A stretch of DNA of 64,000 nt from a virus (IMGVR_UViG_3300033481_000147:3523-67522), one strand, 5' to 3'; shown: positions 50,170-64,000, counted from the stretch's first letter. Notes: a model not told the origin generated them from the letters alone. Numbers and translations are program-made.

Positions 50170-50188
50170 ATATTGAGTTTAGAAAGAG

Positions 50189-50212
50189 GAGCTGAAATAA
50201 GCTCTATTTTTT
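50189..50212 (+). terminator. Terminator-like hairpin between tail and lysis genes
   Basis: GAGCT-gaaata-AGCTC-TATTTTTT. Confidence 0.5.
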
Positions 50213-50214
50213 AT

Positions 50215-50246
50215 GTTTAAAAATTGCAATTCAAAGAATGTATATA
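50215..50246 (+). promoter_or_regulatory. Conserved element copy A (promoter part only)
   Basis: GTTTAAAAA-N8-CAAAGAATGTATATA; no leader hairpin. Confidence 0.7.
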
Positions 50247-50277
50247 AATAAGGGGATTTTTAGAGAGGAGAGGTGTT

Positions 50278-50451
50278 ATGGGTGATGATGTAATTCAAAG
50301 ACTTTTTAGCAAAATTGACAATCTATCTGATCGCTTGGCGCGAGTAGAAACAATGCTGGAAGAACGAGAGAGGAAACAGACGAATATTGCTAGCATAATC
50401 GCCTGGCTAGCAGCAACAGCAGTTGCCATATATGGTGCAGTACATAGATAA
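50278..50451 (+). CDS. XhlA/holin-like small membrane protein (57 aa)
   Basis: Read manually; coiled coil plus C-terminal TM. Confidence 0.65.
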   Translation: MGDDVIQRLFSKIDNLSDRLARVETMLEERERKQTNIASIIAWLAATAVAIYGAVHR

Positions 50452-50463
50452 GAAGGTGAAACA

Positions 50464-50802
50464 TTGAAAAACAGAATATTGGCATTTGCAAACTGGGCGC
50501 AGACGAATTGGCTTGCGCTTGTTATTTTCATGACAGTTATTTTAATGATATTGCTTTGCGTAATTGCATTTTCTTGGATCTTCGGGTATTGGTCAAACGG
50601 TCTATATGGCACAAAATTTGAACTCGGTTCTTGTTGGTCTGGAATAACTGTCGTAATCACTGGCTTTGGTGGGGTGATTGGCCTAGCAAAAGCCGCATGG
50701 ACTAAATACGCTACTGATAGTGAGAAAAATTCACCAATAGGCGAGATGCCAATTAACTTTAAAAATAATATTAATAAAGAGAGGAACGGTTTAAATGGCT
50801 AA
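50464..50802 (+). CDS. Holin
   Basis: Two TM segments, charged tail, precedes endolysins. Confidence 0.75.
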   Translation: MKNRILAFANWAQTNWLALVIFMTVILMILLCVIAFSWIFGYWSNGLYGTKFELGSCWSGITVVITGFGGVIGLAKAAWTKYATDSEKNSPIGEMPINFKNNINKERNGLNG

Positions 50803-51178
50803 ATATTTTAGTGAAGATGAATTTAAATGTAAATGTTGTGGAGAGTTACCAGCTAACGGCATTGATGAAAACTTACAAGAATTATTAGATGATATCAGGG
50901 AAAGAGTAGGACAACCAATTATTTTAAATTGTTGTTATAGATGCGATTCACACAACGCAGAAGTTGGGGGAGTACCAGGCAGCCAGCATAATGCAGATCC
51001 TTGCACAGCTGCCGATATTGATGCATCTGAAATTGGAGTTGAAGAATTAGCGCAAATAGCTGAATCATTAGGTGCAGATGGTGTTGGCCGTTATTTTGGC
51101 GATGCAGGTACTTTTGTGCATGTTGACGTACGTAGTGGTCGCATTGGAGATAATTATCGTTGGAATGAAGGTGAATAA
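50795..51178 (+). CDS. Peptidase M15 endolysin
   Basis: YFSEDEFKC, YRC..HN..VGG...SQH, AADI, FVHVD. Confidence 0.9.
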   Translation: MAKYFSEDEFKCKCCGELPANGIDENLQELLDDIRERVGQPIILNCCYRCDSHNAEVGGVPGSQHNADPCTAADIDASEIGVEELAQIAESLGADGVGRYFGDAGTFVHVDVRSGRIGDNYRWNEGE

Positions 51179-51179
51179 T

Positions 51180-51632
51180 ATGATGCCAGAGGAATTTATC
51201 GGATGGCTTGCACCGGCAGCAATGAATAAATCTGCTTTTTTCAATTTACCTGCATCGGTATTAATCGCTCAAGGAATTTTAGAGTCTGGGTGGGGTACGT
51301 CTATAATTGGTGAGTATAATTTGTTTGGCCGAAAATGGGGCGGGTGGGGTAACTATATCGAAGTGCCTACGCAAGAATATATTGATGGTGAGTATGTAGA
51401 TACAGTCGCTAAATTTCAAGATTATGATAGTTTGTATCAAGCTTGTGATGATTGGTGTGTTCTAATATCACAAGATGAAAAATACGACTACCCGTACGGA
51501 ATATGGAACGCAACGCACGATATTGAACAATTTGTGAGTGCTTTAGCTGATGTATATGCAACTGATCCAGATTATGCGGATAAAATATTATCAACCATTA
51601 AGGCAAATGAATTAACGAAATATGATGCATAA
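51180..51632 (+). CDS. GH73 glucosaminidase-like endolysin
   Basis: AQGILESGWG, YNLFG.K, YATDPDYA. Confidence 0.9.
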   Translation: MMPEEFIGWLAPAAMNKSAFFNLPASVLIAQGILESGWGTSIIGEYNLFGRKWGGWGNYIEVPTQEYIDGEYVDTVAKFQDYDSLYQACDDWCVLISQDEKYDYPYGIWNATHDIEQFVSALADVYATDPDYADKILSTIKANELTKYDA

Positions 51633-51702
51633 CAAAAATAAAAGCGCTGAAATCGAATTCTATGAGATCGATTCTAAGCGCTTTTATAAATTATTTTAAG
51701 AG

Positions 51703-52140
51703 GTGGGAAAATTGAATGAACAAACTAAAAATTATTTGCGCATCGGTATTGTTATTGTGTGTGTTGCAATTATCATTTTTGCCGGTTGGTTTCTGCTCAG
51801 AGACATACACGATAACGGAACAACAGCTGACAACGTTAGAGAGCAACTTGACGCAGTTGCAAGAGAACAACAATCAGCTGAAAAGTCTCTTGAATCAGTC
51901 CAATCAGGAATTGCAGACAGCGAGCGAACAGTCGGAGAACTTGAGCAGTCAGCTAGTGCAGCTCAATCAACAGCTGACCGAATCGCAGAATCAAATAGCA
52001 ATATTAAAACAGCAGTTGATAGCGCTCAAAGAGCAAACGACAGCAGCACAGAACTCATTAACGATAGCGAATCAAGAATTAGCGAATGCCAGTCAATCTT
52101 ACAAGCAGTACGTGCAAGAGCAGGAACGGATTCAGAGTAA
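51703..52140 (+). CDS. i-spanin-like protein (N-terminal TM plus coiled coil); start may be TTG 51712
   Basis: TM YLRIGIVIVCVAIIIFAGWFLL then A/S/E-rich helix; after endolysins. Confidence 0.6.
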   Translation: MGKLNEQTKNYLRIGIVIVCVAIIIFAGWFLLRDIHDNGTTADNVREQLDAVAREQQSAEKSLESVQSGIADSERTVGELEQSASAAQSTADRIAESNSNIKTAVDSAQRANDSSTELINDSESRISECQSILQAVRARAGTDSE

Positions 52141-52210
52141 GCTAAAAACGCAAAAAAATATATGGGAAGTTATTGCAGTTATTAGTGCTGGGTTTGCAAT
52201 AGCTAAATGA
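51716..52210 (+). CDS. Overlapping spanin-like partner (signal peptide, Q/L coiled coil, C-terminal hydrophobic helix)
   Basis: +1 frame overlap of 425 nt; heptad Leu/Gln pattern. Confidence 0.6.
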   Translation: MNKLKIICASVLLLCVLQLSFLPVGFCSETYTITEQQLTTLESNLTQLQENNNQLKSLLNQSNQELQTASEQSENLSSQLVQLNQQLTESQNQIAILKQQLIALKEQTTAAQNSLTIANQELANASQSYKQYVQEQERIQSKLKTQKNIWEVIAVISAGFAIAK

Positions 52211-52212
52211 TT

Positions 52213-52260
52213 AAAATGTCGGAATTAATACGAAAAAATATTAATTCCGACATTTTTTTT
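52213..52260 (+). terminator. Strong terminator, 18-bp perfect stem
   Basis: AAAATGTCGGAATTAATA/TATTAATTCCGACATTTT plus T-run. Confidence 0.85.
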
Positions 52261-52269
52261 ATTTTATGT

Positions 52270-52373
52270 GTTTAAAAATCGTAGTTCAAAGAATGTATAT
52301 AGATGAAAGCCGATATACAGGACAAATAAAATTGAGAAATAAGAGGTTCGGTGGATATGTTGGCTTTTAAAAA
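52270..52373 (+). promoter_or_regulatory. Conserved promoter plus leader hairpin, copy B
   Basis: Stem 52306-52317 pairs with 52356-52367. Confidence 0.75.
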
Positions 52374-52400
52374 TATTAACTAATTTTGGAGGAATGTAAA

Positions 52401-53312
52401 ATGGCAACAGTAGGCGATCAATTAACAGAAGCAGAAGCAGGGTGGACGAGGTATGATGATACTAATGAAAATATAGCCTATACGGGAACTTGGAAGAATG
52501 TTGTAGATAGTACCTATTATAACGGTAACAGACATACATCTACCCGAATATATGATGATGTAAAATTTAACTTCACAGGGAATAAATTAAGGATTATTGG
52601 TGCTTATAATAGTGTTGACAGTAATAATGTAAAAATAACTATCGATAAAGAAATTTACAATATATCAGTGTACAGTGAAAGTCTAATTAAACAAGTATTG
52701 GTTTTTGATATTGAAAATTTATCGACTGGTGAACATTGTGTAACTATTACAAATTTACAAGATTCTAAATATTGTACTATTGATGCATTAGATATTGATG
52801 AAACGGGAGAACTTAAGCCTTATGCCCCAATCGTTGCACCTACAAATTTAACAGCTACTGCAGGTGATTCACAAGTAACATTATTATGGACAGCAGTCGA
52901 AGGCGCAACCAGCTATATCGTAAAACGTTCTATTACATCAGGTGGTACATATGAAACAATTGCTAGTGGTGTGACTGATACTAGCTATGTTGATACCAGT
53001 GTAACGAATGGTACTACATATTATTATGTAGTAGTTGCAGTAAATGCAGATGGAGAAAGCAAAAATTCAAATGAAGCTTCTGCTACACCAGTAGATAATA
53101 GTAAGTTCTTATTACGAGTTACTATGCTTGATTCAAGCGAACGCGATTATCAGTTATCTACAACTGAAATTGATGGTTTCATTAACTGGTATATGAAGCA
53201 TACAAGTACAGATACTACTGGATATATGCTGACTAAAAAAGTTGGTACAGAAGTTAGCAAGGAATACCTGACTTTAGACAAGATTATTAGTTTTGAGGTA
53301 ATTGAACGTTAG
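52401..53312 (+). CDS. Jelly-roll plus FN3 plus conserved C-terminal domain protein, paralog 1
   Basis: APTNLTATAGDSQVTL...TNGTTYYYVV FN3; no signal peptide; GGAGGA SD. Confidence 0.85.
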   Translation: MATVGDQLTEAEAGWTRYDDTNENIAYTGTWKNVVDSTYYNGNRHTSTRIYDDVKFNFTGNKLRIIGAYNSVDSNNVKITIDKEIYNISVYSESLIKQVLVFDIENLSTGEHCVTITNLQDSKYCTIDALDIDETGELKPYAPIVAPTNLTATAGDSQVTLLWTAVEGATSYIVKRSITSGGTYETIASGVTDTSYVDTSVTNGTTYYYVVVAVNADGESKNSNEASATPVDNSKFLLRVTMLDSSERDYQLSTTEIDGFINWYMKHTSTDTTGYMLTKKVGTEVSKEYLTLDKIISFEVIER

Positions 53313-53324
53313 TAAGTAATAGAG

Positions 53325-53368
53325 AAACCGGTATTGGTACAGAAAATGTATCGATGCCGGTTTTTTTT
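53325..53368 (+). terminator. Intrinsic terminator
   Basis: 17-bp stem with three G-U pairs, T8 tail. Confidence 0.85.
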
Positions 53369-53377
53369 ATTTTATGT

Positions 53378-53478
53378 GTTTAAAAATCGTGATGAAAAGA
53401 ATGTATATAGGTGAAAGCCGATATACAGGAAACACGCATTGAAAATATGAGTTCCTCGGCTATGTTTGCTTTTAAAAA
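53378..53478 (+). promoter_or_regulatory. Conserved promoter plus leader hairpin, copy C
   Basis: Stem 53414-53425 pairs with 53461-53472. Confidence 0.75.
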
Positions 53479-53505
53479 TAATAAATTATTTGGAGGAATG
53501 TAAAA

Positions 53506-54426
53506 ATGGCAACAGTAGGAGATCAATTAACAGCACCGGAGGGCGGATGGAAACGATACGATGATACTGATACTCACATAGCGTATAGTGGTACATGGAC
53601 TTACAATACTTATTCTGGTTCATATAATACATCAGAACATATTACTAAAGTACTTAATGATTCTTGCTCTTTCAAGTTTTATGGTTCCAAATTAAGGATA
53701 ATCGGTGTTTATAATTCAAATTGTTCAAAGACTATAAATGTAAACATTGATGGAGTGTCATATTCTTATAGTGCATATGCTTCATCATTAATAAGACAAA
53801 CAATAAATTTTGAGAAGACAGATTTATCGTTAGAGGTGCATACTGTTACAGTTACAAATGAAGTATCTGGTTCTTATGCGACATTAGATGCTATTGATAT
53901 TGATGATAGTGGCTATTTAGGATCAATTACTGCACCAACAAATTTAACTGCAACAGCAGGTGATTCGCAAGTGACTCTATCATGGACAGCAGTTGATGAA
54001 GCAACTAGCTACACTGTAAAACGTTCAACAACTTCAGGTGGTACATACACAACTATCGCTAGCGATATAACTGATACCAGTTATGTAGACACTACCGTAA
54101 CAAATGGAACTACATATTATTACGTAGTTACTGCTGTAAATGATTATGGTGAAAGTGAAAATTCAAATGAAGCTTCTGCTACACCGGTTGATAGTAGTAA
54201 AGTATTGCTGGTAATCACAATGTCAGAGGAAGTACAAAAGGAATATGAACTTTCAAAAATCGAGCTTGATGCGTTTATTGATTGGTATAATACTCGTGCT
54301 GAGGGGACTGGCTTAGCTTATTATATCTTTAACAAGGATTTCAACTTGGGACCATTTGATAGCCGAAAAGATTATATTGTTTTTGATAAAATTGAAAACT
54401 TTGAAGTAATGCAATTCACAAAATAG
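53506..54426 (+). CDS. Jelly-roll plus FN3 plus conserved C-terminal domain protein, paralog 2
   Basis: Same architecture; GPFDSRKDYIVFDKIENFEV tail. Confidence 0.88.
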   Translation: MATVGDQLTAPEGGWKRYDDTDTHIAYSGTWTYNTYSGSYNTSEHITKVLNDSCSFKFYGSKLRIIGVYNSNCSKTINVNIDGVSYSYSAYASSLIRQTINFEKTDLSLEVHTVTVTNEVSGSYATLDAIDIDDSGYLGSITAPTNLTATAGDSQVTLSWTAVDEATSYTVKRSTTSGGTYTTIASDITDTSYVDTTVTNGTTYYYVVTAVNDYGESENSNEASATPVDSSKVLLVITMSEEVQKEYELSKIELDAFIDWYNTRAEGTGLAYYIFNKDFNLGPFDSRKDYIVFDKIENFEVMQFTK

Positions 54427-54436
54427 TTTTAAAGGC

Positions 54437-54478
54437 GGCAATCAGGTACAAAAAATGTACTTGGTTGCCACATTTTTG
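54437..54478 (+). terminator. Intrinsic terminator
   Basis: GGCAATCAGGTACA/TGTACTTGGTTGCC, loop region shared with 53325. Confidence 0.7.
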
Positions 54479-54659
54479 TGTTATCTGTTTAAAAATATTA
54501 CTATCTTTAATAATTAGTTTGTGTACGGATAAAAAGTAAAGAGCAGTAAAGGTAATTTAGCAACTTAATATTCAATTGGCTGTTTTTACTGGAGCTGACA
54601 ATGAAAATTTTAGGGGGCAACAAAGAATGAATTTAATTTAAAAAAATATGGCTTGCTTA

Positions 54660-54759
54660 GTTTAAAAATCGATATTCAAAGAATGTATATAAGTGAAAGT
54701 CAATATACAGGAAACACGCATTAAAAATAAAAGTTCCTTGGCTATGTTGGTTTTCAAAA
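54660..54759 (+). promoter_or_regulatory. Conserved promoter plus leader hairpin, copy D (orphan)
   Basis: Stem 54696-54707 pairs with 54743-54754; no SD or ORF follows. Confidence 0.7.
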
Positions 54760-55001
54760 TAAATTAATAGGGCAAAAACCTCAGTAAAGCGTAATTAAGA
54801 GCTATAAGACGTAATACGGTGCAATTAAACGCTACACAATGTAAAATAATATAATTGTAATCATTTGTAATGTTGATGAATTTGTTTCAATGAGATAATA
54901 TAATAATAGAATTAGTTATGTTAGATTAACATTGCTGAGGTGTTGGAGAGCTTTTCAGATATAATGTATTGTTTCTGGAAAGTTTTTGTAGCTAAAAAAA
55001 C

Positions 55002-55030
55002 TTGAAAATTTTTCACTTTGCGTGTAAAAT
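55002..55030 (+). promoter_or_regulatory. sigmaA-like promoter
   Basis: TTGAAA-N17-TAAAAT. Confidence 0.55.
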
Positions 55031-55188
55031 TTTAAGAAAGATGAGCATAATAATGTAGTAAGTTATTATGAATAGATGCCAAAATTTGAGCATTTAATTT
55101 TTTTTAGCATGTGGTAGACTAGATTTTTTACGCCCTAAAATAGGGTATGGAAAATCAATTAGCCCGCTTAAGAAAGGGAGGTAGTCTT

Positions 55189-55353
55189 ATGGCTACTATA
55201 AGTTTTACAAAAGAATTTTCAGTTAACAGGAGAAATGCAAATAATTTTTCTAAGGCACTATCATCTTCTAGACGAGTGAATTTTGTTAATTCTATAAAAG
55301 CTGCGGATGTAAAAAAAAGTAGCATTTTAAGTTTCTTTGAGGGGATAAAATAG
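55189..55353 (+). CDS. Putative antitoxin (54 aa, MATISFTKEF...)
   Basis: AAGGGAGG SD; small basic gene 3 nt before GNAT. Confidence 0.6.
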   Translation: MATISFTKEFSVNRRNANNFSKALSSSRRVNFVNSIKAADVKKSSILSFFEGIK

Positions 55354-55356
55354 TAT

Positions 55357-55953
55357 ATGGGGTTTGAAGTTGTTCATCTTGGCGATATGCTCGAAGCATT
55401 TAACGATGAAGATCGTTGTTTAAGAGTAATCGCCAATTTTTCTTGTAAACTCGATGAAGATATAGAGTATTTTTTAAAGAAAAAAGCGATTATTAATCAA
55501 AAAATGGGATTATCCAGAACATATCTTGTTTATACTTCATATAAACAAGAAAAAGTATTGGCTGGTTATTTTGCGTTAGCAAATAAATCATTAGTTATTC
55601 GTAATCAAGTTTCAGGAAGTCTGCGAAAACGAATTACAGGATTTAAAAATAAAGAAATTAAGGATATGCCAGTTTTTCTCATTGGTCAACTTTCGAAAAA
55701 TTTTTCTAAGGATTATGATAAAATCCCTTTAATTACCGGGCAGCAATTGCTACAGCTAGCTATTCAGAAAATATTGCAAAGTTGGTATCTTTTTGGGGGG
55801 AGAATTATTTTAGTAGAATGTTTGGACAATCCTTACTTAAGAAGATTTTATGAGAATGAGGGCTTTTCTTTTGTCGAAAAAGATGAAAAAGATGGACTTT
55901 TAAAATATATTTTGGATATAGATAAAATTAATAAAGAAAGTTATAAATTTTGA
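55357..55953 (+). CDS. GNAT acetyltransferase, putative toxin
   Basis: FSC...DIEYFL, LAGYFAL, FLIGQLSKN, RRFYENEGF. Confidence 0.8.
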   Translation: MGFEVVHLGDMLEAFNDEDRCLRVIANFSCKLDEDIEYFLKKKAIINQKMGLSRTYLVYTSYKQEKVLAGYFALANKSLVIRNQVSGSLRKRITGFKNKEIKDMPVFLIGQLSKNFSKDYDKIPLITGQQLLQLAIQKILQSWYLFGGRIILVECLDNPYLRRFYENEGFSFVEKDEKDGLLKYILDIDKINKESYKF

Positions 55954-56122
55954 TTTATTTACATACTGAGATTATGCTTAACGGAAATTAATGCCTGTAC
56001 TGAATTTGTTTTTTGTACAGGCATTAATTTTTACTTTTCAAAAAAGTGTTTAATAAAATATAATTTTGGCGAGGTTGGTTACGTCTTATTTTTATAAAAG
56101 AGCAATCAATCAAACAACTAAC

Positions 56123-56228
56123 TGACAGCCTGTTGACAGCCTGTAATTTTTTTTATTTTCAGATATGACTAGTTATACATAGCAAAATCCTTAATTTTAA
56201 AAGAAAAACGCTGGAAAGCAGGCTGTCA
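56123..56228. repeat. Integrase arm-type sites
   Basis: TGACAGCCTGT tandem at 56123 and 56134; inverted GCAGGCTGTCA at 56218. Confidence 0.7.
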
Positions 56229-56254
56229 AAGGGTTTGTAAAAACCTCTAAAATA

Positions 56255-56311
56255 ACTCGAAATCAATTGTACCGCAAGGTACCGAGGGTTCGAATCCCTC
56301 CCTCTCTGCCA
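56255..56311 (+). pseudogene. trnS: 3' half of tRNA-Ser(CGA), attR core
   Basis: Anticodon loop CTCGAAA, variable arm GTACC-GCAA-GGTAC, T arm GAGGG-TTCGAAT-CCCTC, GCCA end; no 5' half. Confidence 0.9.
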
Positions 56312-56322
56312 TATGTAAATTC

Positions 56323-56356
56323 AAGGCTTCGCGTGGCTTGCGTGGAGCCTTTTTTG
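56323..56356 (+). terminator. Hairpin after tRNA fragment
   Basis: AAGGCTTCGCG/CGTGGAGCCTT with G-U pairs, T-run. Confidence 0.7.
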
Positions 56357-56673
56357 TTGCGTAAAATTTAGTCAATTATATTTCTGACGGCCTAGAGTTT
56401 TTAAGCATTTTTCAATGGTATAATAGAAAATTATACATATAATTTTGAAGCCGTTCTTAACTGGACGGCTTTTACTATGCTGATTTTTAGCCAATTTAAT
56501 AAATATACAAGCAAAACACTCCGAAATAAGGAGTGTTTTATTCATGCTATGTAAGTTTTTAAGTATAGATCTATTAGAAGCAATACTAGAATGCCTTGGA
56601 AGCGTGTAAAAATCAAAAGAAGTTCTGGTAATCATGTAATTGATTAAAAAATAATAAAAATTTAAATTTATGT

Positions 56674-56773
56674 GTTTAAAAATTAACCTCAAAAGAATGT
56701 ATATCAGTGGAAATCGATATACAAGACAAAATAGATTGAAAATAATAGGTCTTTGGCTATATTGGTTTTTAAT
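56674..56773 (+). promoter_or_regulatory. Conserved promoter plus leader hairpin, copy E
   Basis: Stem 56710-56721 pairs with 56758-56769; inner AAGAC/GTCTT. Confidence 0.75.
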
Positions 56774-56797
56774 AAAATTTTAGGAGGAAATTTACAC

Positions 56798-57574
56798 ATG
56801 TCTTACAATTCAAATTTACCAGAGGATATTGATATCAAAGTATCAAGAGCAGAGGTCAGGGAAAATCTTAGAGCGCTGAAAGAAGACAAGATCGTGGACG
56901 CTGCAACTGCTGTTGCTGCAGATTCAGCAGCTAAGTTAACAACTGCAAGAAAAATATCTTTAGAAGGGGATGCAACAGGTAGTACGAGCTTTGATGGTTC
57001 AGCAGATGTAGCTATTCAGGTTGATGTACTTAGTGCAGATACGTCAGCTCAATGTACTGGAAATGCAGCTACTGCAACAAAGTTAGAAACAGCACGGACT
57101 ATTAACGGTGTTGAATTTGATGGTACAAAGGATATTATAGTTCCTACAATTGCACCACGCTGCAAAGCACACCTGACAACTAATGTTTCAATCCCTAGTG
57201 GAGTAACAACTTCAATTCCTATGCAAGTTGTCGACTATGATACTGATAATATTCACACAGCCGATCCGACAAAGTTTCAAATTAATACTTCAGGAGTATA
57301 CTTAATTGTACATCAGAACTACATACCTAAAACATCTACGTGGGATGATATGTGGACTGTAAATGTTATCCTTGAAAAGAACGAAAAAGAATATCTTGCT
57401 GTTACGCAACCTGCAATTGATGGTAACATATCTGCTTTAGTGTATTTGAGCGCTGGTGATTATATTAAAGCTAAAGTATACCAAACCTCTGGGAAAACAT
57501 TTACTACTCAATTTGGGACGGATGGTACAGTAAGTTGCTGGCCATATATTTCAATCGTAAAGATTAGTGATTAA
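56798..57574 (+). CDS. Tail-fibre-repeat protein with C1q/TNF-like head
   Basis: ATKLETARTINGVEFDG repeats; FQINTSGVYLI...LSAGDYIKAKVYQ; AGGAGG SD. Confidence 0.75.
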   Translation: MSYNSNLPEDIDIKVSRAEVRENLRALKEDKIVDAATAVAADSAAKLTTARKISLEGDATGSTSFDGSADVAIQVDVLSADTSAQCTGNAATATKLETARTINGVEFDGTKDIIVPTIAPRCKAHLTTNVSIPSGVTTSIPMQVVDYDTDNIHTADPTKFQINTSGVYLIVHQNYIPKTSTWDDMWTVNVILEKNEKEYLAVTQPAIDGNISALVYLSAGDYIKAKVYQTSGKTFTTQFGTDGTVSCWPYISIVKISD

Positions 57575-57581
57575 ATTTATG

Positions 57582-57612
57582 AGGGGTGAAGAGAAATCTT
57601 CACTCTTTTTAT
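57582..57612 (+). terminator. Terminator with GAAA loop
   Basis: GGGGTGAAGA-GAAA-TCTTCACTCT-TTTT. Confidence 0.8.
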
Positions 57613-57621
57613 TTTGCTTTA

Positions 57622-57672
57622 GCGAGTTGAGGACCGCAGTCCGCAGCCAAAACTCGCCCGTTAAACGGGTGG
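57622..57672. mobile_element. Possible IS200/IS605-type end remnant
   Basis: GCGAGTT...AACTCGC and CCCGTTAAACGGG hairpins; no transposase. Confidence 0.3.
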
Positions 57673-57713
57673 ATAATATGTGCGTGAAAATAGAAAAGAA
57701 TTGTTATTTTGTG

Positions 57714-57740
57714 TTAATTTTTAAAAAAAATATACGATAA
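57714..57740 (+). promoter_or_regulatory. sigma28-like promoter
   Basis: TTAA-N15-TACGATAA. Confidence 0.45.
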
Positions 57741-57793
57741 TATAGATAGGTAACGGTTAAAGGATTAGGAAGAATACAAAGGAGTGTTTTGAT

Positions 57794-59206
57794 ATGGCAG
57801 TCATAATAGGAACAAATCGAAGTCAGGCGGATTCTGTAATTTACAGAGAAGATGAAGCTTTACAGGAAAGATCTTCTGCCCAAAAACAAGATGCAACCGT
57901 AAAGGAGACACCTGCTTATTGTGTAGAAGTTAGTGGCAATTATGATGATAAGGATATTGAAAATATCGCAGATCATTTTAAGAAAATGATAGGAGATTTC
58001 AGAAGTGGCAATTTATCTAAGATTGATTCTGGTGACAATAGCAAAGAATCAATGGATAATTTCAAAAAAGAATTTCAGGACAATGTAACAAAGTTTGCTT
58101 CAACCATTGATTCGGGTGCGTTAAAAGTTTGCCCATCAGTGACGAGTCTTTGGAAGGCCGATCGTACAATCGTTATCGATTTTAATCAGATTGAAAATTT
58201 CTTTAGAAGAGGCGGCTTAAATCCACTTCGTCCAGAGGCACAAGCGGCTTTAGATAAATACTATAATGCAGGAAAGTATATTAATCAAGGAGGAAAGGAC
58301 ACTTTCTTACAGTATAATTTAAAGTTTGCAGCTATAACTGCTTATGAAAATGACAAACTCTCTGATCGTATAGCAAAACAGCAAATTACGGCAGGGCAAT
58401 ACACCAGCGAAGAATATTCAACAGCAAAGAACTATGCAAAAATTTTGCAAGCAAAAGCTGGGGTATTTGTCACTGCTGATTTTGTTTGTGATGGATATGC
58501 ACGACAATTTGCTACGGGCATAACTTATAGCTATAATGGACTTGTATGTGATGTTGGGACAGAGGAACTGAACTTTATGGCTCATCATGATGAAGCGCAA
58601 AGTGTATGGGTAAAAGCTGCTCAAGGGGAATATAAGAATAAAGATGAAATAGCTCAAGCGTTGCGTGAGGGTGGCTATAAAGATGTAGCCGATCAGTTCG
58701 CAGTAAAGTGTACTGGGGAGATGAATACAGAAGTTGGAGCTTTTTCCGAGAATTTTATGCATGGGAACGCTGGTCGTACGGATGATTATCAGCATTTATA
58801 TCAGAAACTATTTGGAGATACTGAGATCAAGCCGCGTTATTCTGCACAACAGCTAGATGCAGCGTATTATTGGGAAGGAAAGCAAGGATCAGATGACTTT
58901 GCCAAATATCCGCTTGATCGTGATCCAATGATACTTTATATAGATGAATATGGACATGCAACGAATGTAACTTATGCGAATAAAAAAGAGAAGGATACTT
59001 CATCGTCAGAAAATAGTACGCCGAGTCAGCGAATTAGTTCATTGAAGTCCGAGATAAGCGAACTTCGAAAACAACTCGAACAAATAAAAGAAGGATCATT
59101 GGATGCACGCCATAAGCAAGAAATGATTAAAAACATCAACAATCACATGCAAACCATTCAGCAGCAAATAAATACTATTACTGAGAATTTAGCTAAACAT
59201 TATTAG
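57794..59206 (+). CDS. Hypothetical protein with C-terminal FlxA-like coiled coil
   Basis: AYCVEVS N-terminal motif; RISSLKSEISELRKQLEQI...IQQQINTI. Confidence 0.6.
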   Translation: MAVIIGTNRSQADSVIYREDEALQERSSAQKQDATVKETPAYCVEVSGNYDDKDIENIADHFKKMIGDFRSGNLSKIDSGDNSKESMDNFKKEFQDNVTKFASTIDSGALKVCPSVTSLWKADRTIVIDFNQIENFFRRGGLNPLRPEAQAALDKYYNAGKYINQGGKDTFLQYNLKFAAITAYENDKLSDRIAKQQITAGQYTSEEYSTAKNYAKILQAKAGVFVTADFVCDGYARQFATGITYSYNGLVCDVGTEELNFMAHHDEAQSVWVKAAQGEYKNKDEIAQALREGGYKDVADQFAVKCTGEMNTEVGAFSENFMHGNAGRTDDYQHLYQKLFGDTEIKPRYSAQQLDAAYYWEGKQGSDDFAKYPLDRDPMILYIDEYGHATNVTYANKKEKDTSSSENSTPSQRISSLKSEISELRKQLEQIKEGSLDARHKQEMIKNINNHMQTIQQQINTITENLAKHY

Positions 59207-59337
59207 CTAAATGTTATTGAACTGTTTTGATTGAGATAGTGAATTTTCGGCAATGAAATTAATAAACCGACTTCAGTTATCAAATGAGCGACCTTTCATG
59301 AGGAATGAGTAACTGTGGTGGTACAAGTAGTAAATTG

Positions 59338-59372
59338 AAGGCTTTGCGTGATTTGATGTAGGGCCTTTTTTA
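59338..59372 (+). terminator. Hairpin homologous to the post-att hairpin
   Basis: AAGGCTTTGCGT/ATGTAGGGCCTT plus T-run. Confidence 0.55.
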
Positions 59373-59490
59373 TTTGCGTTTTTTGCAAAAGTATTTCAAC
59401 AACTAATACTCTTGAAGTTACAGTGGAAGTAGAACTCGATACGCAAAGTTTCATTCTTGTCATCAAAGTACTAGCATAGCTTGAAAAATT

Positions 59491-59531
59491 AAAAAGGTGT
59501 TTAACTTAGTTTTCGAGTTAAACACCTTTTT
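59491..59531. terminator. Bidirectional terminator
   Basis: 16-bp stem with A/T ends. Confidence 0.75.
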
Positions 59532-59549
59532 AATTTTTTTAGATTTATA

Positions 59550-59646
59550 GTTTAAAAACTGCAATTGCAAGAATGTATATAAGTAAAGGCCAATATACTG
59601 GAAAACAATTTTAAATAAAATTTTCCTAGCTATATTGGATTTAAAT
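59550..59646 (+). promoter_or_regulatory. Conserved promoter plus leader hairpin, copy F
   Basis: CCAATATA 59590 pairs TATATTGG 59631; GGAAAA/TTTTCC. Confidence 0.75.
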
Positions 59647-59671
59647 TATATCTTATTAGGGGTGGATTTTT

Positions 59672-60667
59672 ATGTCAAACACAGTAGATATCACAGGCGA
59701 AATTATTGTAGTATCCCATGGAGACGAGGATACAGGGAAAATAGCTATGCTAGGAGATGAAGGAAAATTCCATAAAAGTGTAATTCCGGTAATTGATGAT
59801 TTGCAAGAACAAATCACAAAAGAGGTTACAGGACGAACTGAAGCAGATAAACAGCTACAAACTAATATTGATGCAGAAACAAGTACTAGAATATCAGCTG
59901 ATCAGCAAATGCAGGGAAATATTGAAGCGGAAGCCATAGCAAGAGATGCTGCCGATAAAGGCTTGGAAGATAAGCTTTCTGCAGAGGCTACAGCTAGAAC
60001 TAATGCCGATATTCAACTACAAGCTAATCTTGAGGCAGAAGCTAATACTAGAAGAATTGCAGATCAAGACTTGCAAGATCAAATTTCTAAAGAAATTGTG
60101 GCACGAACCGATGGCGATACGGCTTTACAGTCTAGTGTTGATAAAGAAGTAGTAGCGCGTTCGGATGCAGATAGTAAATTGCAAGGTTCTATTGACAACG
60201 AAGTAGATACTAGAGTAAAAGCCGATCAAGGTCTGCAAGATCAAGTAACTGCTGAAATTGCCGCTAGGACTAATGCTGACGAAACCGAATCAAGCACACG
60301 GGCTAGTGCTGATAATAACTTGCAGGAACAAATTAATGCATTGAAAGGATCAACTTTTGATGCTGGACACTCGTTTAGTGATAATGGTTACCAGAGCTTA
60401 GGTAATGGATTGATTCTGCAATGGGGGCATGCTCAGTTATCAAAAGGAGAAAATATCGGCAACGCATCGGTTACATTTCCTACCCCTTTTCCGAATAAGT
60501 GTCTTAGTTTTACGACCACTTATGATAACCCGCCGCAAGATAGTTGGGGACCTATGAGTACAGCGATAACGAATGTTACAAAAGTTGGATGTACTTTGTG
60601 GGGCGATGCAGATGAACATCATATTGATAATAATGTTAATATTTATTATATGGCTATAGGTTATTAA
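59672..60667 (+). CDS. Coiled-coil fibre protein: nine 18-aa repeats plus gp53-like tail-fibre C-terminal domain
   Basis: D..LQ..I..E...R..A repeats; NGYQSLGNGLILQWG...VTFPTPFPN. Confidence 0.8.
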   Translation: MSNTVDITGEIIVVSHGDEDTGKIAMLGDEGKFHKSVIPVIDDLQEQITKEVTGRTEADKQLQTNIDAETSTRISADQQMQGNIEAEAIARDAADKGLEDKLSAEATARTNADIQLQANLEAEANTRRIADQDLQDQISKEIVARTDGDTALQSSVDKEVVARSDADSKLQGSIDNEVDTRVKADQGLQDQVTAEIAARTNADETESSTRASADNNLQEQINALKGSTFDAGHSFSDNGYQSLGNGLILQWGHAQLSKGENIGNASVTFPTPFPNKCLSFTTTYDNPPQDSWGPMSTAITNVTKVGCTLWGDADEHHIDNNVNIYYMAIGY

Positions 60668-60681
60668 AAAATAACATCTTT

Positions 60682-60713
60682 AGGGGTGGAGAGAAATCTT
60701 CACTCCTTTATTT
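60682..60713 (+). terminator. Terminator nearly identical to 57582
   Basis: AGGGGTGGAGA-GAAA-TCTTCACTCCT-TT. Confidence 0.75.
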
Positions 60714-60723
60714 AATAAAAAGA

Positions 60724-60885
60724 GTGAATCTAGAAGCTGCAGTTGTTATTAGAGCACAAAAGGTTATGTACGCCAAGGATTCTTTAAGGTACAGTGACAA
60801 GAGTGTAGCAGAAATAAATATGCAAATTTTTGTTATGAGCATTAAAGCATTAGCAGAACTGAGAAAATTAATTGCTAGGCTGTAA
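60724..60885 (+). pseudogene. Short, probably decayed ORF (53 aa)
   Basis: C-terminus resembles stop-interrupted fragment near 59405-59495. Confidence 0.3.
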
Positions 60886-60912
60886 ATGAAAAACTAAATC
60901 ATGATACAACCC

Positions 60913-60953
60913 AAAAGGCGTTTAACTCAGTTATAAAGTTAAATGCCTTTTTT
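60913..60953. terminator. Bidirectional terminator homologous to 59491
   Basis: Compensatory T-A to C-G and G-C to G-U changes. Confidence 0.75.
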
Positions 60954-60981
60954 GAGATTTTTATAGATTTATAGTCTTATA

Positions 60982-61079
60982 GTTTAAAAATTGCAATCGC
61001 AAGAATGTATATAAGTGAGGCCCCATATACTGGAAAACACAATTTTAAATAAGAATTTCCTAGCTATATTGGGTTTAAA
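60982..61079 (+). promoter_or_regulatory. Conserved promoter plus leader hairpin, copy G
   Basis: Stem 61018-61029 pairs with 61065-61076. Confidence 0.75.
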
Positions 61080-61105
61080 TTATATTTTATTAGGGGTGGA
61101 TTTTT

Positions 61106-64000
61106 ATGTCAAGCACAGTAAATATCACAGAAGAAATTATTGTAGTATCCCATGGGGACGAGGATACAGGAAAAATAGCTATGCTAGGGGCTGGAGGGAA
61201 ATTTCATAGAAGCGTAATTCCGGTAATTGATGATTTGCAAGAACAAATCACAAAAGAAGTTACTGATCGAATTGAAGGAGATAAGGCTCTACAAACAAAT
61301 ATTGATGCGGAAGTTAGCGCTAGAACTGAAGGAGATAAGGCTCTACAAACCAGTATTGATGCAGAAGCTAGTGCTAGAACTGTTGCAGACAAAGATTTGC
61401 AAGATCAGGTTACAAAAGAAGTTACAGAACGAACTGAAGGAGATAAGGCTCTACAAACCAGTATTGATGCAGAAGCTAGTGCTAGAACTGTAGCGGACCA
61501 ACAGTTACAAGATCAGGTTACAAAAGAGGTCACAGATCGAACTGAAGGAGATAAAGTTCTACAGGCCAACATTGATGCGGAAATTACTGAGCGAACTGAA
61601 GGAGATAAGGCTCTACAGGCTAATATTGATGAGGAAGCTAGTGCTAGAATTGCTGCAGACAAAGATTTGCAAGATCAGGTTACAAAAGAAGTTACAGAAC
61701 GAACTGAAGGAGATAAAGTTCTACAGGCCAATATTGATGCGGAAGCTAGTGATAGAGCAGCTGCAGACAAAGATTTGCAAGATCAGGTTACAAAAGAGGT
61801 TACAGAACGAGCTGAAGGAGATAAGACCCTACAAACAAATATTGATGCAGAAGCTAGTGCTAGAACTGCTGCAGACAAAGATTTGCAAGATCAGGTTACA
61901 AAAGAAGTTACTGATCGAATTGAAGGAGATAAGGCTCTACAAACAAATATTGATGCGGAAGTTAGCGCTAGAACTGAAGGAGATAAGGCTCTACAAACAA
62001 ATATTGATGCGGAAGTTAGCGCTAGAACTGAAGGAGATAAGGCTCTACAAACCAGTATTGATGCAGAAGCTAGTGCTAGAACTGCTGCAGACAAAGATTT
62101 ACAAGATCAGGTTACAAAAGAAGTTACTGATCGAACTGAAGGCGATAAAGTTCTACAAACAAATATTGATACGGAAGTTAGTGCTAGAACTGTAGCGGAC
62201 CAACAGTTACAAGATCAGGTTACAAAAGAGGTCACAGATCGAACTGAAGGAGATAAAGTTCTACAGGCCAACATTGATGCGGAAATTACTGATCGAACTG
62301 AAGGAGATAAAGTTCTACAGGCCAATATTGATGCGGAAGTTACTGAGCGAACTGAAGGAGATAAGGCTTTACAAGCTAATATTGATGCAGAAGCTAGTGC
62401 TAGAGCTGCAGCGGATCAACAGTTACAAGATCAGGTTACAAAAGAAGTCACAGAACGAACTGAAGGAGATAAGGCTCTACAAACAAATATTGATGCAGAA
62501 GCTAGTGCTAGAACTGCTGCAGACAAAGATTTGCAAGATCAAGTTATAAAAGAAGTTACTGATCGAACTGAAGGCGATAAAGTTCTACAAACAAATATTG
62601 ACGCGGAAGCTAGTGCTAGAGCAGCTGCAGACAAAGATTTGCAAGATCAGGTTACAAAAGAGGTTACAGAACGAGCTGAAGGAGATAAGGCTCTACAGGC
62701 CAATATTGATGCGGAAGTTAGCGCTAGAACTGAAGGAGATAAGACCCTACAAACGAACATTGATACGGAAGTTAGTGCTAGAACTGAAGGAGATAAAACA
62801 TTACAGACCGACATTGATTCGGAAGTTAGCGCTAGAACTGAAGGAGATAAAACATTACAGGCCAACATTGATTCGGAAGTTAGTGCTAGAACTGTAGCAG
62901 ACAAAGATTTGCAAGATCAGGTTACAAAAGAGGTTACAGAACGAACTGATGGAGATAAAGTTCTACAGACCGATATTGATGCAGAAGCTGGTGCTAGAGC
63001 TGTAGCAGACAAAGATTTGCAAGACCAAATTAACAAAGAAGTTACTGAACGAACTGAAGGAGATAAAACATTACAAACAAATATTGATACGGAAGTTAGC
63101 GCTAGAACTGTAGCGGACCAACAGTTACAAGACCAAATCACAAAAGAGGTTACAGAACGAACTGATGGTGATAAGGAGCTACAGGCCAATATTGATACGG
63201 AAGTTAGCGCTAGAACTGTAGCAGACCAACAGTTACAAGATCAAATTAACAAAGAAGTTACAGAACGAACTGATGGAGATAAAGTTCTACAGACCAATAT
63301 TGATGCAGAAGCTGGTGCTAGAGCTGAAGGAGATCAAGCGTTACAAGACCAAATTAACGAAGAAGTTACTGATCGAACTGAAGGAGATAAGGCTCTACAA
63401 ACAAGTATTGATGCAGAGGCTAGTGCTAGAACTGCTGCAGACAAAGATTTGCAAGATCAGGTTACAAAAGAGGTTGCAGAACGAACTGAAGGAGATAAGG
63501 CTCTACAAACAAGTATTGATGAAGAAGTTAGTGCTAGAGCAGCTGCAGACAAAGATTTACAAGATCAGGTTACAAAAGAAGTTACTGATCGAACTGATGG
63601 AGATAAAGTTCTACAGAGCAGTATTGATGCGGAAATTACTGATCGAGCTGAAGGAGATAAAACATTACAGGCCAATATTGATGCAGAAGCTACTGAGCGA
63701 ACTGAAGGAGATAAGGCTCTACAGGCCAATATTGATGCAGAAGCTACTGAGCGAACTGAAGGAGATAAGGCTCTACAGGCCAATATTGATGCAGAAACTA
63801 CAGAACGAACTGAAGGAGATAAGGCTTTACAAGCTAATATTGATGCAGAAGCTAGTGCTAGAGCTGCAGCGGATCAACAGTTACAAGATCAGGTTACAAA
63901 AGAGGTCACAGATCGAACTGAAGGAGATAAAGTTCTACAGGCCAACATTGATGCGGAAATTACTGAGCGAACTGAAGGAGATAAGGCTCTACAGGCTAAT
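61106..64000 (+). CDS. Very long coiled-coil repeat fibre protein, 3' truncated (965 codons in window)
   Basis: Absent from ORF track because no stop occurs; N-terminus MSSTVNITEEIIVVSHGDEDTGKIAMLG nearly identical to 59672. Confidence 0.88.
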   Translation, partial: MSSTVNITEEIIVVSHGDEDTGKIAMLGAGGKFHRSVIPVIDDLQEQITKEVTDRIEGDKALQTNIDAEVSARTEGDKALQTSIDAEASARTVADKDLQDQVTKEVTERTEGDKALQTSIDAEASARTVADQQLQDQVTKEVTDRTEGDKVLQANIDAEITERTEGDKALQANIDEEASARIAADKDLQDQVTKEVTERTEGDKVLQANIDAEASDRAAADKDLQDQVTKEVTERAEGDKTLQTNIDAEASARTAADKDLQDQVTKEVTDRIEGDKALQTNIDAEVSARTEGDKALQTNIDAEVSARTEGDKALQTSIDAEASARTAADKDLQDQVTKEVTDRTEGDKVLQTNIDTEVSARTVADQQLQDQVTKEVTDRTEGDKVLQANIDAEITDRTEGDKVLQANIDAEVTERTEGDKALQANIDAEASARAAADQQLQDQVTKEVTERTEGDKALQTNIDAEASARTAADKDLQDQVIKEVTDRTEGDKVLQTNIDAEASARAAADKDLQDQVTKEVTERAEGDKALQANIDAEVSARTEGDKTLQTNIDTEVSARTEGDKTLQTDIDSEVSARTEGDKTLQANIDSEVSARTVADKDLQDQVTKEVTERTDGDKVLQTDIDAEAGARAVADKDLQDQINKEVTERTEGDKTLQTNIDTEVSARTVADQQLQDQITKEVTERTDGDKELQANIDTEVSARTVADQQLQDQINKEVTERTDGDKVLQTNIDAEAGARAEGDQALQDQINEEVTDRTEGDKALQTSIDAEASARTAADKDLQDQVTKEVAERTEGDKALQTSIDEEVSARAAADKDLQDQVTKEVTDRTDGDKVLQSSIDAEITDRAEGDKTLQANIDAEATERTEGDKALQANIDAEATERTEGDKALQANIDAETTERTEGDKALQANIDAEASARAAADQQLQDQVTKEVTDRTEGDKVLQANIDAEITERTEGDKALQAN
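61226..64000 (+). repeat. 54-nt tandem coding repeat, 51 full units plus a partial
   Basis: Units DKALQTNIDAEVSARTEG and DKDLQDQVTKEVTERTEG; 2775 nt = 51x54+21. Confidence 0.92.

Follow-up and report, generated by a model that had tools for sequence, protein, structure and literature searches.

In Staphylococcus aureus, the sigma factor SigS directly transcribes sroAB, a pair of genes of the DUF1659 and DUF2922 families, and SroA is reported to raise the stability of the sigS mRNA (bioRxiv 10.1101/2022.10.19.512975). In Bacillus subtilis, yvrJ is a member of the SigO-RsoA regulon (PMC8103513). Both systems bear on a 31-nt element that occurs seven times in a 64,000-nt stretch of viral DNA (hereafter the window), which comprises bases 3523-67522 of the 67.5-kb IMG/VR provirus record IMGVR_UViG_3300033481_000147, with a CheckV completeness of 92%. 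Comparison of sequences leads us to suggest that the element is probably the promoter of a host alternative sigma factor (the one linked to DUF1659 or a paralogue of it), that it is combined with a hairpin in the mRNA leader, and that the prophage has co-opted it.

The likeness to SigS and sroAB is that of a small sigma-70-family factor with DUF1659 and DUF2922 targets, as the candidate sigma gene of the Negativicutes adjoins members of the same two Pfam families; the Negativicutes regulon differs in that it would add prophage lysis and fibre cassettes, glycosidases, and the leader hairpin. With SigO-RsoA (YvrI-YvrHa), the system shares a YvrJ-family gene under a dedicated, autoregulated, and atypical sigma factor. 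SigO-RsoA is, however, a split sigma factor, whereas the Negativicutes protein has regions 2 and 4 in one polypeptide, and no DUF1659 gene was found in the B. subtilis genome used as a control. PBSX Xpf and similar small sigma factors, which drive late and lysis genes of Firmicute phages and prophages, resemble the present case in that a group-4-like sigma factor controls a phage lysis cassette, but Xpf is prophage-encoded and drives the whole late operon; here, there is no sigma gene in the provirus and the motif does not precede the head and tail genes.

What is new is best read as a promoter-plus-leader RNA motif that prophages have co-opted for lysis and accessory cassettes. The first-pass annotation had spoken of a candidate undescribed regulon; on our reading, the regulon is not wholly undescribed and belongs to a known, poorly understood kind of sigma module, that of the DUF1659-DUF2922-YvrJ operon, which is widespread in Firmicutes and functionally uncharacterised. 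If our reading is right, the sigma factor that accompanies this triad gains a promoter consensus and an initial regulon, spanning lysis cassettes, fibre-like proteins, and pectinases and glycosidases without signal peptides. [quoted passage not shown] The hairpin adds a multi-copy leader RNA motif absent from Rfam, with 70 distinct copies and up to 18 in one genome.

The element and its coupling to a hairpin

The exact 31-mer, GTTTAAAAA-N10-AAGAATGTATAT, is present seven times in the window, always on the plus strand and co-directional with the genes, which bears out the earlier claim of a seven-copy element with invariant spacing. Copy A (50215-50245) stands without a hairpin, 32 nt 5' of the first gene of the lysis cassette. 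The other six run directly into an imperfect hairpin of 65-70 nt with the stems quoted in the first-pass annotation: copy B (52270-52372, promoter 52270-52300 and hairpin 52301-52372), copy C (53378-53477, hairpin 53409-53477), copy D (54660-54759, the best-scoring of the window at 82.8 bits), copy E (56674-56774, hairpin 56705-56774), copy F (59550-59647, hairpin 59581-59647), and copy G (60982-61081, hairpin 61013-61081). At the hairpin-bearing copies, a start codon behind a free Shine-Dalgarno sequence follows 91-100 nt 3' of the motif, except at copy D, which has no start codon. Dinucleotide-preserving shuffles give a chance expectation of 0.03 matches to the 31-mer, and none of 100 shuffles reached seven. 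The whole 67.5-kb record contains no further copy, a relaxed scan of it (GTTTAAA, 13-15 nt, GAATGTATA, three mismatches) added background only, and neither scan placed the motif at the genes for head and tail. As a working consensus we use GTTTAA, 15 nt, and GAATGTRTAT, followed by (A/C/T)AGTGAAAG.

The exact 31-mer is also found in other IMG/VR proviruses and in the genomes of Pelosinus, Massilibacillus, and a 'Veillonellaceae' metagenome-assembled genome (MAG), all Negativicutes of the Sporomusaceae type. In most of these copies the hairpin is again present, and the genes that follow belong to a small recurring set of families, whose products begin with MATVGxQL, MSRTVNxN, MSYNSNLP, or MYEVDxYTVSLLHFD (the last being a LamG plus FN3 family). 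Three matches, in Chitinophaga, Chitinophagaceae, and a Clostridia MAG, have unrelated sequence around them and are apparently fortuitous. The coupling of the two halves was examined with a covariance model built from the hairpin alone, without the promoter, so that the test was unbiased. The model matched in 20 of 101 sampled Negativicutes genomes, with 1 to 18 copies per genome, and found 34 copies in 10 of the 15 genomes of the Pelosinus baikalensis family; Negativicutes genomes and proviruses together yielded 70 distinct hairpins. Upstream sequence was available for 68 of them, and here GTKKAW is found at -30 to -25 in 64 and exact GAATGT at -9 to -4 in 58, most of the others being one base off. 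The motif is absent upstream of only one of the 68, and the hairpin begins 3-4 nt after it. The feature is real, multi-copy, and restricted to one lineage.

The reverse does not hold. Several proviruses carry the motif without the hairpin before Phage_holin_4_1 genes or before a 57-aa lysis-cassette gene, and we conclude that promoter and hairpin are separable modules. Further candidate members of the regulon in other genomes are GH26, GH43, PL9, GH53, and GH51 enzymes, LamG/FN3 proteins, a C39-like peptidase, and holins. Most of these enzymes lack a signal peptide, but the GH43 enzyme has one. The proposal that the element heads fibre-like genes without signal peptides is upheld for a set of fibre-like and carbohydrate-binding genes, most of which lack such peptides. 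The suggestion that the element serves both prophage and flanking DNA is correct for other genomes, where it lies in prophage and non-prophage DNA alike.

Sigma factor genes and the probable reader of the promoter

The most telling pointer to the factor that reads the element, one that the first-pass annotation had missed, is the place where the motif recurs outside prophages. A small sigma-70-family protein of about 170-220 aa, with regions 2 and 4, is encoded in the Negativicutes directly upstream of the DUF1659-DUF2922-YvrJ operon. Each of the 15 genomes of the Pelosinus baikalensis family has this core sigma gene, which lies there after an ABC-F gene and is followed by the DUF1659, DUF2922, and YvrJ genes, two small open reading frames (ORFs), and recD2. 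At the junction between the sigma gene and DUF1659, all 11 loci that were read contain GTTTAAA(G/A)A-N10-(G/A)GAATGTATA, then CAGTGAAAGGGGGTGAGA and the DUF1659 start codon. In a class-wide sample, DUF1659 is found in 49 of 61 genomes; the motif, without hairpin, lies upstream of it in about 24 of 30 fetched loci, and a sigma ORF ends directly upstream in 23 of the 30. Some of the motif-bearing DUF1659 loci have AT-rich intergenic DNA with no overlying sigma ORF at this position, and conservation of the motif is therefore not due to coding constraint alone. The most divergent clade of the sigma factor (50-57 bits) has a divergent motif as well, GTTGCYAAA...CAATGTCT. We note that one core locus of the Pelosinus-type family (L144:2562-4350) encodes, in order, ABC-F, the sigma factor, DUF1659, DUF2922, a 114-aa YvrJ-domain protein, 67- and 54-aa ORFs, and RecD2; no peptidase gene is present at this locus, and the two small ORFs belong to no family.

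A second link is provided by a paralogue of the core sigma factor, 40-48% identical to it. In each of two genomes listed, Pelosinus baikalensis (L061:8336-11961) and the MAG (L062:7897-15778), one sigma-70/ECF gene lies inside a cluster of motif copies. Its product (P0003/P0004) has 168-177 aa, matches the Pfam region 2 and r4_2 domains and TIGR02937, and reaches no NCBIfam subfamily cut-off. In both genomes, a first unit of motif and hairpin precedes a PL9 pectate-lyase-like gene, a second precedes a 66-aa ORF and the sigma gene itself, and a third, which lies over the last codons of the sigma gene, precedes a second PL9 gene; in the MAG only, a fourth unit heads a GH51 arabinofuranosidase gene. 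A GH53 gene with a variant motif and hairpin lies upstream. Since uvrA and a histidine kinase gene adjoin, we consider the locus chromosomal and not part of a prophage. The 66-aa ORF (L061:9930-9960), the GH51 enzyme (L062:13268-13300), and the fibre protein behind copy E (window 56798-56830) share an N-terminal tag, M(S/V)YN(S/Q)(N/D)L(P/S), and are otherwise different proteins; the tag may be an attachment or targeting peptide.

Linkage in the operon, together with the precedents of SigS with sroAB and SigO with yvrJ, leads us to infer that the DUF1659-linked sigma factor, or its paralogue, has the motif as its cognate promoter. The -35 part would be GTTTAA and the extended -10 part GAATGTRTAT, 15 nt on, and the most likely reader would be the small protein whose gene immediately precedes the DUF1659-DUF2922-YvrJ operon, or else the paralogue. 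The mRNA would begin within the conserved AGTGAAAG, a few bases 3' of the motif. At the DUF1659 genes, such a start would give a leader barely longer than the Shine-Dalgarno sequence, while in six of the seven copies of the window, the first 65-70 nt of the mRNA would form a long AU-rich stem-loop at or near the 5' end. The promoter alone would then serve the holin/endolysin cassette, and the promoter with hairpin would serve six terminator-insulated cassettes for fibre-like or carbohydrate-binding proteins. With its fixed coupling of motif and hairpin and its presence at a sigma-adjacent operon, the element does behave as the alternative-sigma promoter with a leader that had been postulated. 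The further idea of a sporulation promoter found no counterpart, as nothing linked the motif to sporulation sigma factors.

Searches of the provirus record with Sigma70_r2 and r4_2 returned only a 14.6-bit stretch inside a ParB-like gene, inspection of the orphan ORFs of the early region (by eye and with Pfam and PHROGs) found no sigma factor, and no relative of the Negativicutes sigma was found in IMG/VR. The last result favours a host-encoded factor, and the lysis genes of the phage appear to depend on such a factor. It could instead be argued that the promoter is read by a late factor of the phage, a divergent sigma factor or an activator that its sequence does not betray, and that the chromosomal copies are relics of such phages; the motif does stand before lysis cassettes in more than one provirus, some genes in the early region of this phage could be assigned to no family, and copy D may be preceded by the faint remnant of a sigma 3' end. 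We regard this as improbable: sigma domains are missing from the record and relatives of the factor from IMG/VR, no copy of the motif precedes head or tail genes, and the motif is conserved class-wide before a core chromosomal operon (by ABC-F and recD2) that is far from prophages. As to the possible relic, the 70 nt 5' of copy D (window 54590-54659, plus strand) are closer in sequence to the sigma gene's 3' end than are the other six flanks, with a z of only 2.0 against shuffles, and the stretch may, on this weak signal, be the decayed remnant of a lost phage-borne sigma cassette. A tblastn match of the sigma factor before copy D (E 2e-8) was set aside, as it consists mostly of motif and hairpin read as protein. 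A clearer relic is seen in L009.

Promoters of the SigB/SigF type consist of GTTTAA, a spacer of 12-15 nt, and a GGGTAT-like -10 box. The -35 part of our element is identical to this hexamer, but at the -10 position, it has AAGAAT or GGAATG and then an invariant TGTRTAT, and GAATGTRTAT matches neither GGGTAT nor the consensus sequences of sporulation sigma factors; we therefore do not assign the element to this type. The resemblance to the group-5 factors TcdR, BotR, TetR, and UviA, which drive clostridial toxins and holins, is of a different kind. The promoters of the TcdR/UviA group have TTTACA at -35 and GTTATA or GTATAT at -10, and an SRQ motif marks region 4.2 of the sigma factors (PMC4031146). 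TTTACA may be set beside GTTTAA, and GTTATA or GTATAT beside TGTATAT, a likeness of boxes that was judged without their spacing, and in both systems, proteins without signal peptides are controlled together with holins, the TcdR family also governing holin-linked release. The boxes are, however, merely similar, the candidate sigma factor comes from another lineage, has TPQAIYNLRNRG and no SRQ, and falls below every NCBIfam subfamily cut-off, and the motif tracks the DUF1659-linked sigma gene. We conclude that a classical promoter of any of these kinds (SigB/SigF, sporulation, or group 5) is quite unlikely. The 5' arm of the hairpin, GCCGATAT, equals the -10 box of sigma-28, and a SigD promoter was considered and rejected, as the arm varies with compensation and the hairpin-less copies keep the 31-mer. 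A text search of the literature for the two boxes returned only primer noise.

Structure and possible action of the hairpin

The pairing statistics refer to the 70 distinct hairpins, many of them related by duplication, and to 18 pairs named by hand. Standard pairs occupy 87% of the cells, against 28-48% when the partners are slid, and both partners have changed in 19 cells, a number reached by none of 500 shuffles. One-sided changes from G-U to A-U or G-C are common, and the inner stem occurs in several fully compensated versions (GGAA/UUCC, AGAC/GUCU, and GGAU/AUCC). Minimum free energy folding gives the same long hairpin in 66 of the 70 copies, with a mean z of -2.3 relative to dinucleotide shuffles. 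The sense strand is the more stable in 65 of 70 (-13.4 versus -8.7 kcal/mol, p 5e-12), and this bias, together with the many G-U pairs, indicates an RNA in the coding sense rather than a palindrome of duplex DNA. We conclude that the hairpin structure is real and that its covariation is moderate.

An Rfam search with the six hairpins of the window, at E values up to 10, matched no family, in agreement with the first-pass annotation, which had recognised no riboswitch. Nor is the hairpin an intrinsic terminator or attenuator, for which a short G+C-rich stem, a small loop, and an unpaired U run are expected: the stems are AU-rich, the loops are about 20 nt, the U run is paired, and a terminator scan called none of the six. 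The apical region has the conserved sequence AAUAAGAG and an ACACA stretch, more than pairing requires. We note one hairpin (L016:1097-1181, minus strand) that is cut after its 5' arm and followed by an ORF resembling OrfA of IS3-type transposases; an insertion sequence appears to have landed in this leader.

Stabilising stem-loops at the 5' end are familiar from Gram-positive and phage mRNAs and include the aprE leader, ermC, the STAB-SD of cryIIIA, and the ompA type. Our hairpin resembles them as a stable sense-strand structure that would lie at the start of the mRNA, upstream of a free ribosome-binding site. It differs in being much longer, in its large conserved A-rich loop, in its many copies, and in its tie to one promoter type. 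We propose that it is a leader element through which expression of the cargo genes is increased or adjusted, and protection of the 5' end from decay is the mechanism we favour, with a bound protein as a real alternative. Given the conserved loop sequence (AAUAAGAG), either a bound factor or a decoy that resembles a Shine-Dalgarno sequence is still to be considered. The first of these could be a small protein of the DUF1659/DUF2922 pair (the SroA/SroB type), or an anti-termination factor that acts on the terminators between the cassettes. Such a binding site would explain why the apical sequence is conserved beyond the needs of pairing, and the distribution of the hairpin, which is found before cargo genes and before the gene of the paralogous sigma factor and is absent before holin genes and the DUF1659 operon, looks like differential control; moreover, SroA works post-transcriptionally on sigS mRNA, and the cassettes are separated by terminators. 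The S. aureus effect has, however, been proposed to operate through RNases rather than RNA binding, and a protein that binds the hairpin is hypothetical. We hold this role to be possible, with the odds against it.

More speculatively, the sigma factor linked to DUF1659, DUF2922, and YvrJ might run a release programme in which holin and endolysin are made together with glycan-degrading enzymes that lack signal peptides and with glycan-binding fibres, proteins that could leave the cell only by lysis. Prophages would have wired in their exit genes and cargo, and the hairpin would be the handle by which the DUF1659 and DUF2922 proteins set the stability of the cargo and sigma mRNAs. Non-phage release systems such as the type 10 secretion system of Serratia (ChiWXYZ) offer a parallel, since glycan-active enzymes without signal peptides are co-regulated there with holin and M15-type peptidase genes; in our case, the lysis genes are those of a prophage that seems complete, and release of the enzymes by lysis is conjecture. 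This scheme is doubtful, but it would give a function to three widespread uncharacterised families and would mean that a phage hands control of lysis to a host sigma factor.

Several observations weigh against a host sigma promoter with an mRNA leader. The 19 double changes are spread over only 8 pairs, a number that 59 of the 500 shuffles reached, so that full compensatory covariation is thin; RNAalifold, applied to 40 leaders, gave no consensus structure; and the outer stem is mostly conserved in sequence among copies many of which are duplication-related. The statement that the sequence drifts while pairing is kept thus stands on the proportion of pairs and the number of double changes, but its effect is modest. 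At many loci, the motif overlaps the C-terminal codons of the sigma gene, and coding constraint may explain part of its conservation. The link between sigma factor and promoter is one of guilt by association. The SigS precedent rests on the shared Pfam families of the targets and not on orthology of the sigma factors or a published SigS consensus, of which we found none. Genomes with the exact 31-mer have the sigma gene, as do all 15 members of the family, and its presence in the host of this provirus is assumed from these relatives. Finally, it makes awkward biology for a temperate phage to place its lysis cassette under a stress-type sigma factor of the host.

The cassette array and the ends of the record

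All seven copies lie in an array of short transcription units that begins where the tail operon is closed by a terminator-like hairpin (50188-50205, plus strand), just 5' of copy A. The terminator scan found further terminator-like sites at 52213-52256, 53321-53367, 54437-54469, 56323-56351, 57581-57608, 59488-59534, and 60682-60707, and such sites are enriched in the region (19 versus 5.3 expected). They end 10-25 nt 5' of copies A, B, C, F, and G, and the nearest lie about 190 and 320 nt upstream of D and E, respectively, so the description of most copies as sitting just after a terminator is accurate. This position before most copies suggests that the array is a string of insulated, mostly single-gene units.

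The lysis cassette behind copy A (50278-52210, plus strand) comprises a 57-aa coiled-coil gene, a 112-aa phrog_28789 gene, an M15 endolysin gene (50795-51178), and one or more coiled-coil genes that extend to 52210. Gene B (52401-53312), whose ATG lies behind GGAGG, encodes a jelly-roll/FN3 protein of phrog_10059, and gene C (53506-54426) its paralogue of the same family, also with FN3. Downstream of copy D, the first ORFs in the same direction begin at 55147 and 55357 (acetyltransferase, phrog_1758), and a blastx comparison of 54426-56700 with the other cassette proteins found nothing. Copy E is followed (56798-59206) by a gene for a tail-fibre-like protein that begins with MSYNSNLP and then by a 470-aa coiled-coil gene (57794-59206). 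The latter has no motif of its own and stands behind a terminator-like hairpin (window 57581-57794); its transcription would require either a promoter elsewhere or read-through that starts at copy E. Gene F (59672-60667) encodes a tail-fibre protein with a Gp53-like C-terminal domain, and gene G (61106-64000), with the same N-terminus as gene F, is a giant repetitive fibre gene that is still open at the end of the window and the record. All these genes are on the plus strand. The cassettes B and C, as well as F and G, are duplicates and are not independent.

An array of this form, with single-gene cassettes in one orientation separated by imperfect hairpins that share a recurring bulge, and with proteins that are strongly mosaic between loci, invites the suggestion that the repeats act at the level of DNA, as cassette junctions of the integron attC kind or as homology for shuffling, and are not expression signals. 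An attC site, however, lies downstream of a promoter-less cassette beside an IntI integrase gene, whereas our element is upstream of each gene, after a terminator and at a fixed distance before the Shine-Dalgarno sequence. No integron-type integrase was seen beside the array, although no search specific for IntI was made, and the sole integrase gene lies at the opposite end of the record. Core genes that are not cassettes likewise have the promoter half, without hairpin, before them, and mosaicism can be a by-product of shared sequence. We consider a recombination site very unlikely, and continue to read the repeats as promoters with leaders.

The record opens with an integrase gene, an ImmA-like gene, and an XRE repressor gene; replication genes, terminase, and a lengthy operon of structural genes come next, and the record breaks off, together with the window, within a fibre gene that is still open after at least 965 codons. 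The first-pass annotation had placed a prophage boundary within the array, and none is visible: the genes downstream match phage families (tail fibre PHROGs and phrog_10059), and in another complete provirus, homologous cassettes flank the holin gene on both sides. A megablast comparison of the region with the phage collection gave no match. The phage is apparently a complete prophage of a bacterium of the Sporomusaceae type.

Two minor observations concern the window itself. The one Rfam match of note, to RF04351, a plastid 3'UTR family, at window 56259-56308 (minus strand), scores 43.6 bits against a gathering score of 68; it falls on the region of a terminator-like hairpin and is almost certainly a chance match to a hairpin. 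The repeats of the giant fibre gene (window 61106-64000) probably broke the contig, and hence the right end of the prophage is missing from the record.

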